Source of the DNA: Eledone cirrhosa
Taxonomy: Eukaryota
Direction of reading: 5' to 3'
DNA: 64,000 nt
Assembly: GCA_964016885.1 (NCBI GenBank)
Contig: OZ024742.1
Coordinates: 51,832,001-51,896,000 of the forward strand
Position 1 is the stretch's first letter; each line of letters starts with the position of its first letter. Under the pieces are notes generated by a model. It did no database searches and was not told the origin of the DNA. It saw only the letters and a program-made list of their open reading frames with translations. Below are positions 13,393 through 13,590 of the stretch, in pieces. Made by a program: the position numbers and the translations under genes.

Positions 13393-13590
13393 ATAGGAAC
13401 CAGTAAGACCCCGACAGCTGAGCTCAAGCCGTTTCGACGGCTAATTCGCCGTCGAGAGAATTAGCCGTCGAAACGGCTTGAGCTCAGCTGTCGGGGTCTT
13501 ACTGGTTCCTATTACCCACTCTACTACCTCAAGTATTGAGTACTTTGGTGCGTTATGGTCCACCTGGTTCCTTACCACATTTCCTTCGTT
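13393..13590 (+). mobile_element. ~200-bp hairpin-plus-tail element, copy 1
   Basis: 120-bp hairpin 13393-13512 followed by a tail ending ttccttcgtt(AT)n; homologous to the copies at 14993 and 48781. Confidence 0.85.

Follow-up and report, generated by a model that had tools for sequence, protein, structure and literature searches.

In the accessible parts of the earlier reports, insertions of Penelope-like elements carry an inverted, 5'-truncated copy and a tail of 30–40 bp that is often present at one end only, and are biased towards (TA)n targets (PMC8557442), with palindromes at the inverted junctions for which self-priming has been proposed (PMC3846280). In vitro, according to the accessible part of a further study, a Penelope-like enzyme cleaves both strands of the target at ATT and extends them, and two internal reverse transcription start sites delimit the tail, hammerhead cleavage not being needed (PMC11167929). 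The same partial sources state the origin of the inverted ends and of the one-sided tails as open (PMC11167929, PMC8557442, PMC3846280).

The 64,000-nt stretch of DNA analysed here (the window) is eukaryotic, octopod-like, AT-rich and dense in microsatellites. It contains three copies of a 200-bp unit (13393–13589, 14993–15191 and 48781–48979), with no fourth found by blastn and with pairwise identities of 82–84% over ~200 bp. Each of the three consists of a palindrome of ~120 bp (GGAA...TTCC) followed, on one side only, by a tail of 77–79 nt, whose terminus on the plus strand reads CTT(C/T)GT before it passes into (TA)n. The component features are as follows.

13393–13447, minus strand: left arm of copy 1, the exact inverse of the right arm, directly abutting (TA)n, with which it overlaps by TA/ATA.
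13448–13457, no strand assigned: centre of copy 1, a 10-nt loop with a templated repeat (GCCGTCGA) of 13464–13471.
13458–13512, plus strand: right arm of copy 1, the putative sense copy.
13463–13491, plus strand: nested A-A'-A repeat of copy 1 (AGCCGTC, ACGGCT, AGCYGT) around the GAAA at 13470–13473.
13513–13589, plus strand: tail of copy 1, 77 nt, starting with TATTA and ending with CTTCGT before (TA)n.
14993–15112, no strand assigned: palindrome of copy 2, with loop GGACT and five private arm differences.
15113–15191, plus strand: tail of copy 2, followed by (TA)9.
48781–48900, no strand assigned: palindrome of copy 3, with a 2-nt loop (GGAC-CA-GTCC).
48901–48979, plus strand: tail of copy 3, followed by (TA)5 and a repeat.

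Five of the six junctions of these copies lie in (TA)n, the left flank of copy 2 being the exception. A second copy of the repeat on the right of copy 3 stands at 58207 after an uninterrupted (TA)n run, which gives an analogue of the empty site at 58170–58217, and the end of the element beside copy 1 (element D below) recurs at 1105–1345 without the hairpin (empty-site analogue 1282–1347). Because these flank analogues occur without the hairpin, copies 1 and 3 look as if they were inserted into pre-existing (TA)n runs. A TSD is unreadable in (TA)n, and copy 2 shows only TA. The trinucleotide ATT, which is common in AT-rich DNA, stands at the boundary of arm and tail in all three copies. The tail folds no better than its shuffles on either strand (z from -0.85 to +0.29), and an ATG 35 nt before its end was rejected as the start of an ORF, the changes between copies being, by eye, mostly non-synonymous.

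With the EN+ insertion units of Penelope-like elements, as given in the accessible text of PMC8557442, PMC3846280 and PMC11167929, the family shares the head-to-head inverted copy, the one-ended tail, the palindromic junction, the (TA)n target, the 5' truncation and the unreadable TSD. It differs from them in the size of the whole unit, ~200 bp, and in a tail of 77 nt, which is about twice the 30–40 nt of the literature yet within the 33–111 nt of its siblings in the window. When six features of Penelope EN+ insertions were considered, four were found here, namely the inverted 5'-truncated copy, the one-ended tail, the (TA)n target and a 3'-anchored series of truncations. We consider the copies probably to be (at roughly 0.7) short 5'-truncated insertions of a Penelope-like noncoding end, or of a non-autonomous RNA using the enzyme of such an element, and the whole is a new family of an already described layout. 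Membership among Penelope-like elements is putative: in contrast to canonical Penelope ends, the copies hold no intact hammerhead, and no ORF-bearing parent element was found. Among the reads listed in rows for the mapped runs, none leads from the tail into an ORF.

The initial annotation had described three copies that differ in the sequence of their arms and yet stay self-complementary, and both the alignments and the pairing of the arms bear this out. Copy 1 is a perfect 55-bp hairpin with no arm mismatch (-126 kcal/mol, z -16.7, with 0 of 200 shuffles as low), and copies 2 and 3 have about five mismatches each. When the co-variation of the arms was tabulated, as had been suggested, both partners proved to differ between copies in 8 of 56 arm pairs, whereas shuffles give 2.6 ± 1.4 and none of 500 reaches the observed number; this count comes from only three sequences, and slid controls give 0–2. 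A 2-nt insertion in copy 2 is likewise present in both arms. Mismatches within copies fall at 10 pairs and all are private, none being common to two copies. Co-variation among three sequences shows symmetry, not selection for RNA structure.

The same layout is seen in other parts of the window. We compared nine other palindromes (A–I) with both arms in one element, chosen from 35 inverted matches, leaving out dispersed repeat pairs and a large inverted LINE duplication at 31.4–43.2 kb. In six of them (A, B, E, F, H and I) one end directly abuts a microsatellite and the other bears a tail (111, 92, 42, 80, 92 and 33 nt, respectively); C continues into its ORF, D is without a tail, and G is too decayed to read. 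Intact minimal hammerhead cores (CTGANGA...GAAA) are present in both arms of A–D (4/9) and absent in E–I, and a scan of the window for hammerhead cores finds the minimal cores as mirrored pairs. Three of the four core-bearing palindromes also have Penelope-like ORFs. In tblastn comparisons with RT/GIY-YIG proteins (52 of the 120 fetched were used), A matches with an E-value of 6e-6, D with 2e-5 and the region 50243–52051 with 6e-124; C has 66% DNA identity to A and also a sub-threshold GIY-YIG match. The RT ORF at 50489–51865 has its closest named relative in Octopus sinensis (66%), and longer relatives of this ORF carry RT and GIY-YIG domains, which is the Penelope-like architecture. Between the family under study and the Penelope-like elements of the window, blastn finds no sequence match. 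The (TA)n run that holds copy 1 is the one at the end of D. Three of these neighbours are as follows.

1347–5504, minus strand: family A, which has a Penelope-like ORF, hammerhead cores in its inverted arms and a 111-nt tail only 3' of the ORF.
6512–7019, plus strand: family B, an ORF-less palindrome whose two arms each hold an intact minimal hammerhead core, with a tail of 92 nt on one side.
11190–13311, minus strand: neighbour D, an inverted remnant of Penelope-like type, its hammerhead cores lying at 13057 (plus) and 11434 (minus).

Words of copy 1 are found in 14 of the 24 public sequencing runs listed, with half or more of the words in eight, and the 14 positive runs span 10 studies and 10 organism labels; no RNA run is listed among them, which carries no weight on expression. 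We mapped four runs onto copy 1, which gave 22,366 matches among 12,467,656 raw reads in X24, 14,430 contigs in X1, 41 in X4 and 2 in X8. The family is real, well conserved and abundant; it likely occupies thousands of loci in organism A, the reduced-representation reads yielding no copy number. At eight variant pairs among those listed, the frequencies are mirrored between left and right arm (r = 0.97; for instance 0.82/0.82, 0.35/0.34 and 0.18/0.19), in a comparison where 11% of reads fit two places and the variant sites are not independent. Read depth is continuous across the boundary of arm and tail and collapses only at the palindrome centre. The left junction and the 3' end are fixed, and among the rows listed the 3' loose ends continue into (TA)n. 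In three runs the end of the tail is covered more deeply than the left junction (9,858 versus 3,988, 566,503 versus 331,667 and 285 versus 166), in ratios that are biased by reduced-representation sampling, hairpin drop-out and minority letters of copy 1 near the left end. Loose ends before 13520, 13531 and 13534 represent tail-only, 5'-truncated copies, subject to the same kind of library bias, and any symmetric copies without a tail would be placed on the left arm and be invisible in read mapping.

At the centre, loose ends beyond the left arm read TGGACTAAATT... (740 reads) and those before the right arm read ...AATTTAGTCC (1,350 reads, 86 X1 contigs and 2 X4 contigs), and ~20 nt upstream of the right arm are similar in organisms A and B. 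From these loose ends it follows that many members fold further in than the window copies, and that the RNA is longer at its 5' side. In several joints a complete left arm is linked to mid-tail positions (13447 to 13534, 13538 and 13546), and tandem copies are represented by only 36 reads from 2 starts, with the units separated by (TA)n. Sharp read ends at 13446 and 13459 were rejected as ends of the element, since they coincide with AATT words and are read as library restriction cuts by a presumed enzyme. The word AGGCTAAAAA is common to the left flank of copy 2 (14980–14992) and to the sequence upstream of two X4 contigs (loose end before 13457); in both places there are 24 nt from the start of the word to the end of a GTCC, probably by chance.

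In the mechanism that we propose for an insertion of Penelope-like type, a GIY-YIG endonuclease would nick (TA)n on both strands and reverse transcription would have two fixed starting points on the RNA, one at the end of the tail and one at TATTA, where the arm ends. The cDNA begun at the tail would be on the bottom strand and the one begun at TATTA on the top strand, and these two short cDNAs would be joined head-to-head where they are self-complementary, in many cases with a small templated insertion; alternatively, a single cDNA may fold back on itself and be resolved at TATTA. The predicted product lies within (TA)n and consists of a sense copy that has the 77-nt tail and, head-to-head with it, an inverted copy that lacks the tail. 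Because both arms would copy one RNA, every RNA variant should appear in both arms and mismatches should arise only later, which likely explains the co-variation, the private mismatches, the variable centres and the 8-mer in the loop of copy 1. We somewhat favour two start sites over a pure snap-back. The fixed left junction leans this way, as do the joints from left arm to mid-tail, since a single snapped-back cDNA needs a later deletion to produce them, although these joints may be later deletions instead. A ribozyme is not needed for the proposed insertion, and no function beyond selfish spread is indicated. The retro-RNA origin with a rebuilt mirror arm, put forward in the initial annotation, agrees with the 3' anchoring, the 5' truncation, the private mismatches and the layout of the Penelope-like neighbours; a snap-back at stem II of a ribozyme, which the annotation also proposed, is not supported.

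A version that derives the right arm from the 3' half of an ancestral type I hammerhead, with the CUGANGA half overwritten by a cDNA folding back in helix II, is compatible with a Penelope origin but in our judgement unlikely. The reading of the right arm as stem-GAAA-cggc-T(T/C)-gag is correct for copies 1 and 2, and copy 3 has TAAA on the right and GAAA in the complement of the left arm. The occurrence of GAAA is near chance, given that 25% (copy 1) and 54% (copy 2) of 5,000 right-arm shuffles hold one, and in copy 1 it also forms the loop region of a nested hairpin (AGCCGT-CGAA-ACGGCT). A minimal helix III in this place (GAAA-CGGC-UH) would need a C-C pair and so fails: the five intact window cores that we tabulated have complementary letters there, as do hammerheads in the accessible part of PMC4209133. 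In an alternative, longer helix III, ACGGCT (13473–13478) pairs with AGCYGT (13486–13491) and is followed by a GUC site (13490–13492), with cleavage predicted after the GUC, at 13492. The 6-bp helix and GUC of copy 1 occur in 0.7% of 5,000 same-strand shuffles (1.0% on either strand), figures obtained post hoc, and 5 bp of the helix are found in the complement of the left arm of copy 3. A G10.1-C11.1-type pair precedes the GAAA, which lies 42 nt before the end of the arm compared with 71–230 nt in four intact neighbours, and canonical Penelope ends carry hammerheads in the accessible part of PMC4209133. However, the long reading with GAAA, helix III and a UH site pairs 5–6 bp, and is intact, in only three of six arm sequences, and its helix is an automatic result of the nested A-A'-A repeat, which strand switching could make.

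The 5' half of the core was sought upstream. CTGANGA is found before GACGGCTA neither in the three copies nor in the window nor in the 19 loose-end rows listed (30 letters each, a sample that rare parents could escape), and none precedes the right arm in the loose ends listed from four runs; what stands there is TAAAAATT..AATTTAGTCC, which is not a 5' strand of helix II. We rejected a type I hammerhead as such, the CUGANGA core 5' of helix II being absent from all three copies and from the loose ends listed, and also a CTGGTGA upstream of the right arm in two X4 contigs, which is on the minus, and thus wrong, strand and has no matching helix I. The initial annotation had placed the fold centre, and the snap-back, at stem II. 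Neither placing holds, as the centre differs among the three copies and the arms of many members in the reads extend inward past it (TGGACTAAATT on the left, AATTTAGTCC on the right), so that the centre is not tied to one stem. Rfam has no hammerhead at the gathering threshold (0 matches) or among 40 sub-threshold matches over 12900–15300 (E up to 10), a negative that is weak because Rfam also missed the intact minimal cores of the window. The half-ribozyme is weakly indicated, and we regard it as unproven. An octopod-wide, ORF-less Penelope parasite with an ancestral long-helix-III hammerhead erased by fold-back, and with thousands of insertions recording two independent cDNA starts on opposite strands of the target, seems similarly unlikely to us.

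MITE and foldback elements are small, hairpin-forming and of high copy number, with subfamily arm co-variation and TA at the hairpin ends, and the family is like them in all of these respects. It is quite improbable, in our view, that the copies are a palindromic element of this kind (GGAA...TTCC in TA) with a fixed tail, or one of Helitron or Helentron type, whose arms strand switching or gene conversion has kept equal. Copies 1 and 2 have TA on either side of GGAA...TTCC, and the templated insertions at the centres and the nested repeat fit strand switching. However, the inverted repeat is found at one terminus only and stops short of the right one in all three copies, reads cross the boundary of arm and tail, the centre is variable and there are tail-only copies; a MITE or TIR transposon was rejected, the tail lying outside the inverted repeat in 3/3 copies. 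Helitrons have 5' TC and 3' CTRR ends and insert in AT. The minus-strand end of copy 2 reads CTAG/T, as such an element would have it, but CTAG is present in one copy of the three and on the minus strand, with a plus-strand end of CTT(C/T)GT, and we rejected a Helitron. The asymmetric ends and a small hairpin in the tail of copy 1 (13565–13577, 12 nt from the tail end) resemble the Helentron-associated HINE/DINE-1 elements with their small 3' hairpin, and the left end of copy 1 matches a 9-nt inverted stretch in its own tail; in copies 2 and 3 the match is only 5 nt long, so that no pair of subterminal repeats of the 11–15 bp given for Helentrons is present in all copies (9, 5 and 5 nt), and the insertions lie in (TA)n, not in TT, by the accessible part of the description (PMC4067079). 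The tail-only, 5'-truncated copies and the identical layout of the Penelope-like neighbours argue for retrotransposition.

Non-LTR retrozymes, which are non-autonomous derivatives of Penelope in the accessible parts of PMC7229834 and bioRxiv 10.64898/2026.07.22.740005, are like the family in being short, noncoding, of high copy number and likely moved by a Penelope enzyme, whereas they are head-to-tail tandem units with a complete type I hammerhead and the family here is head-to-head and without the 5' core; finding no tandem of complete hammerhead cores, we rejected this assignment. That the RNA is a substrate half for a hammerhead enzyme strand acting in trans, as was also suggested, is very improbable: a GAAA-helix III-GUC half can be drawn, and half cores are noted for some Naiad elements in the accessible part of PMC8557442, but the window holds no matching enzyme strand (GACCCC-CTGANGA or CTGANGA-GACGG), its matches with up to two mismatches being the copies themselves or unrelated contexts, and in a full transcript the half is locked in a hairpin of -126 kcal/mol with a 52–57-bp duplex.

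The tail motif has 0 matches in metagenome, prokaryote genome and viral collections, and the matches of the arm motif (1 viral, 4 metagenome) were rejected, being only the 17–21-nt pattern and chance scraps. In a literature search mostly outside subscription papers we found no description of the three-copy family from octopods, and paper supplements or repeat databases may hold it already. Since such stubs resemble MITEs, the family is useful for annotation. With its short units, high copy number and subfamily markers in both arms, it offers a per-locus test of whether the arms share one RNA, and of whether left arms can reach past the sense copy. If a hammerhead was erased and there were two cDNA starts, the insertions would be a natural read-out of self-priming versus two-primer Penelope integration, and an octopod-wide Penelope parasite, if that is what the family is, would be a large source of 50–60-bp perfect RNA hairpins. 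RNA editing and small-RNA pathways are prominent in cephalopods, and the hairpins, if transcribed, would be substrates for both.

Within its 64 kb the window has at least eight unrelated palindrome families (1347–5504, 5928–11177, 6512–7019, 11190–13311, 13822–14180, 17890–18267, 54382–55194 and 55200–56200), most with a one-sided tail and nested in one another's (TA)n, and four with intact minimal hammerhead cores that differ in sequence. A 298-bp hairpin at 17970–18267, 99% perfect, with a 2-nt loop, an 80-nt left tail and no hammerhead core, is very young and laid out as in the three-copy family. The 968-bp palindrome at 55200–56200 has a 33-nt tail, and its arm ends contain only the word CTGATGA-AGGAC with no GAAA after it, a 5' hammerhead-like half and thus the opposite of the half proposed for the three-copy family. 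The tails of A (1347–1455) and B (6928–7019) both start with the word TCCGGA and contain CGTCGAG, which hints at a shared recognition motif. A solo, clean minimal hammerhead core with the canonical GGAC/GTCC helix II lies at 24240–24270 (minus strand) between two (TA)n runs, and each unit of a 571-bp tandem duplication at 24414–25581 has a CTGATGA on the minus strand, with GAAA not in reach. Several near-identical APE/RT/zf-RVT LINE copies in opposite orientations form a 12-kb inverted structure at 31447–43955, and at 5586–5720 two near-identical short inserts of repeated CTTGTA words lie within one (TA)n run.
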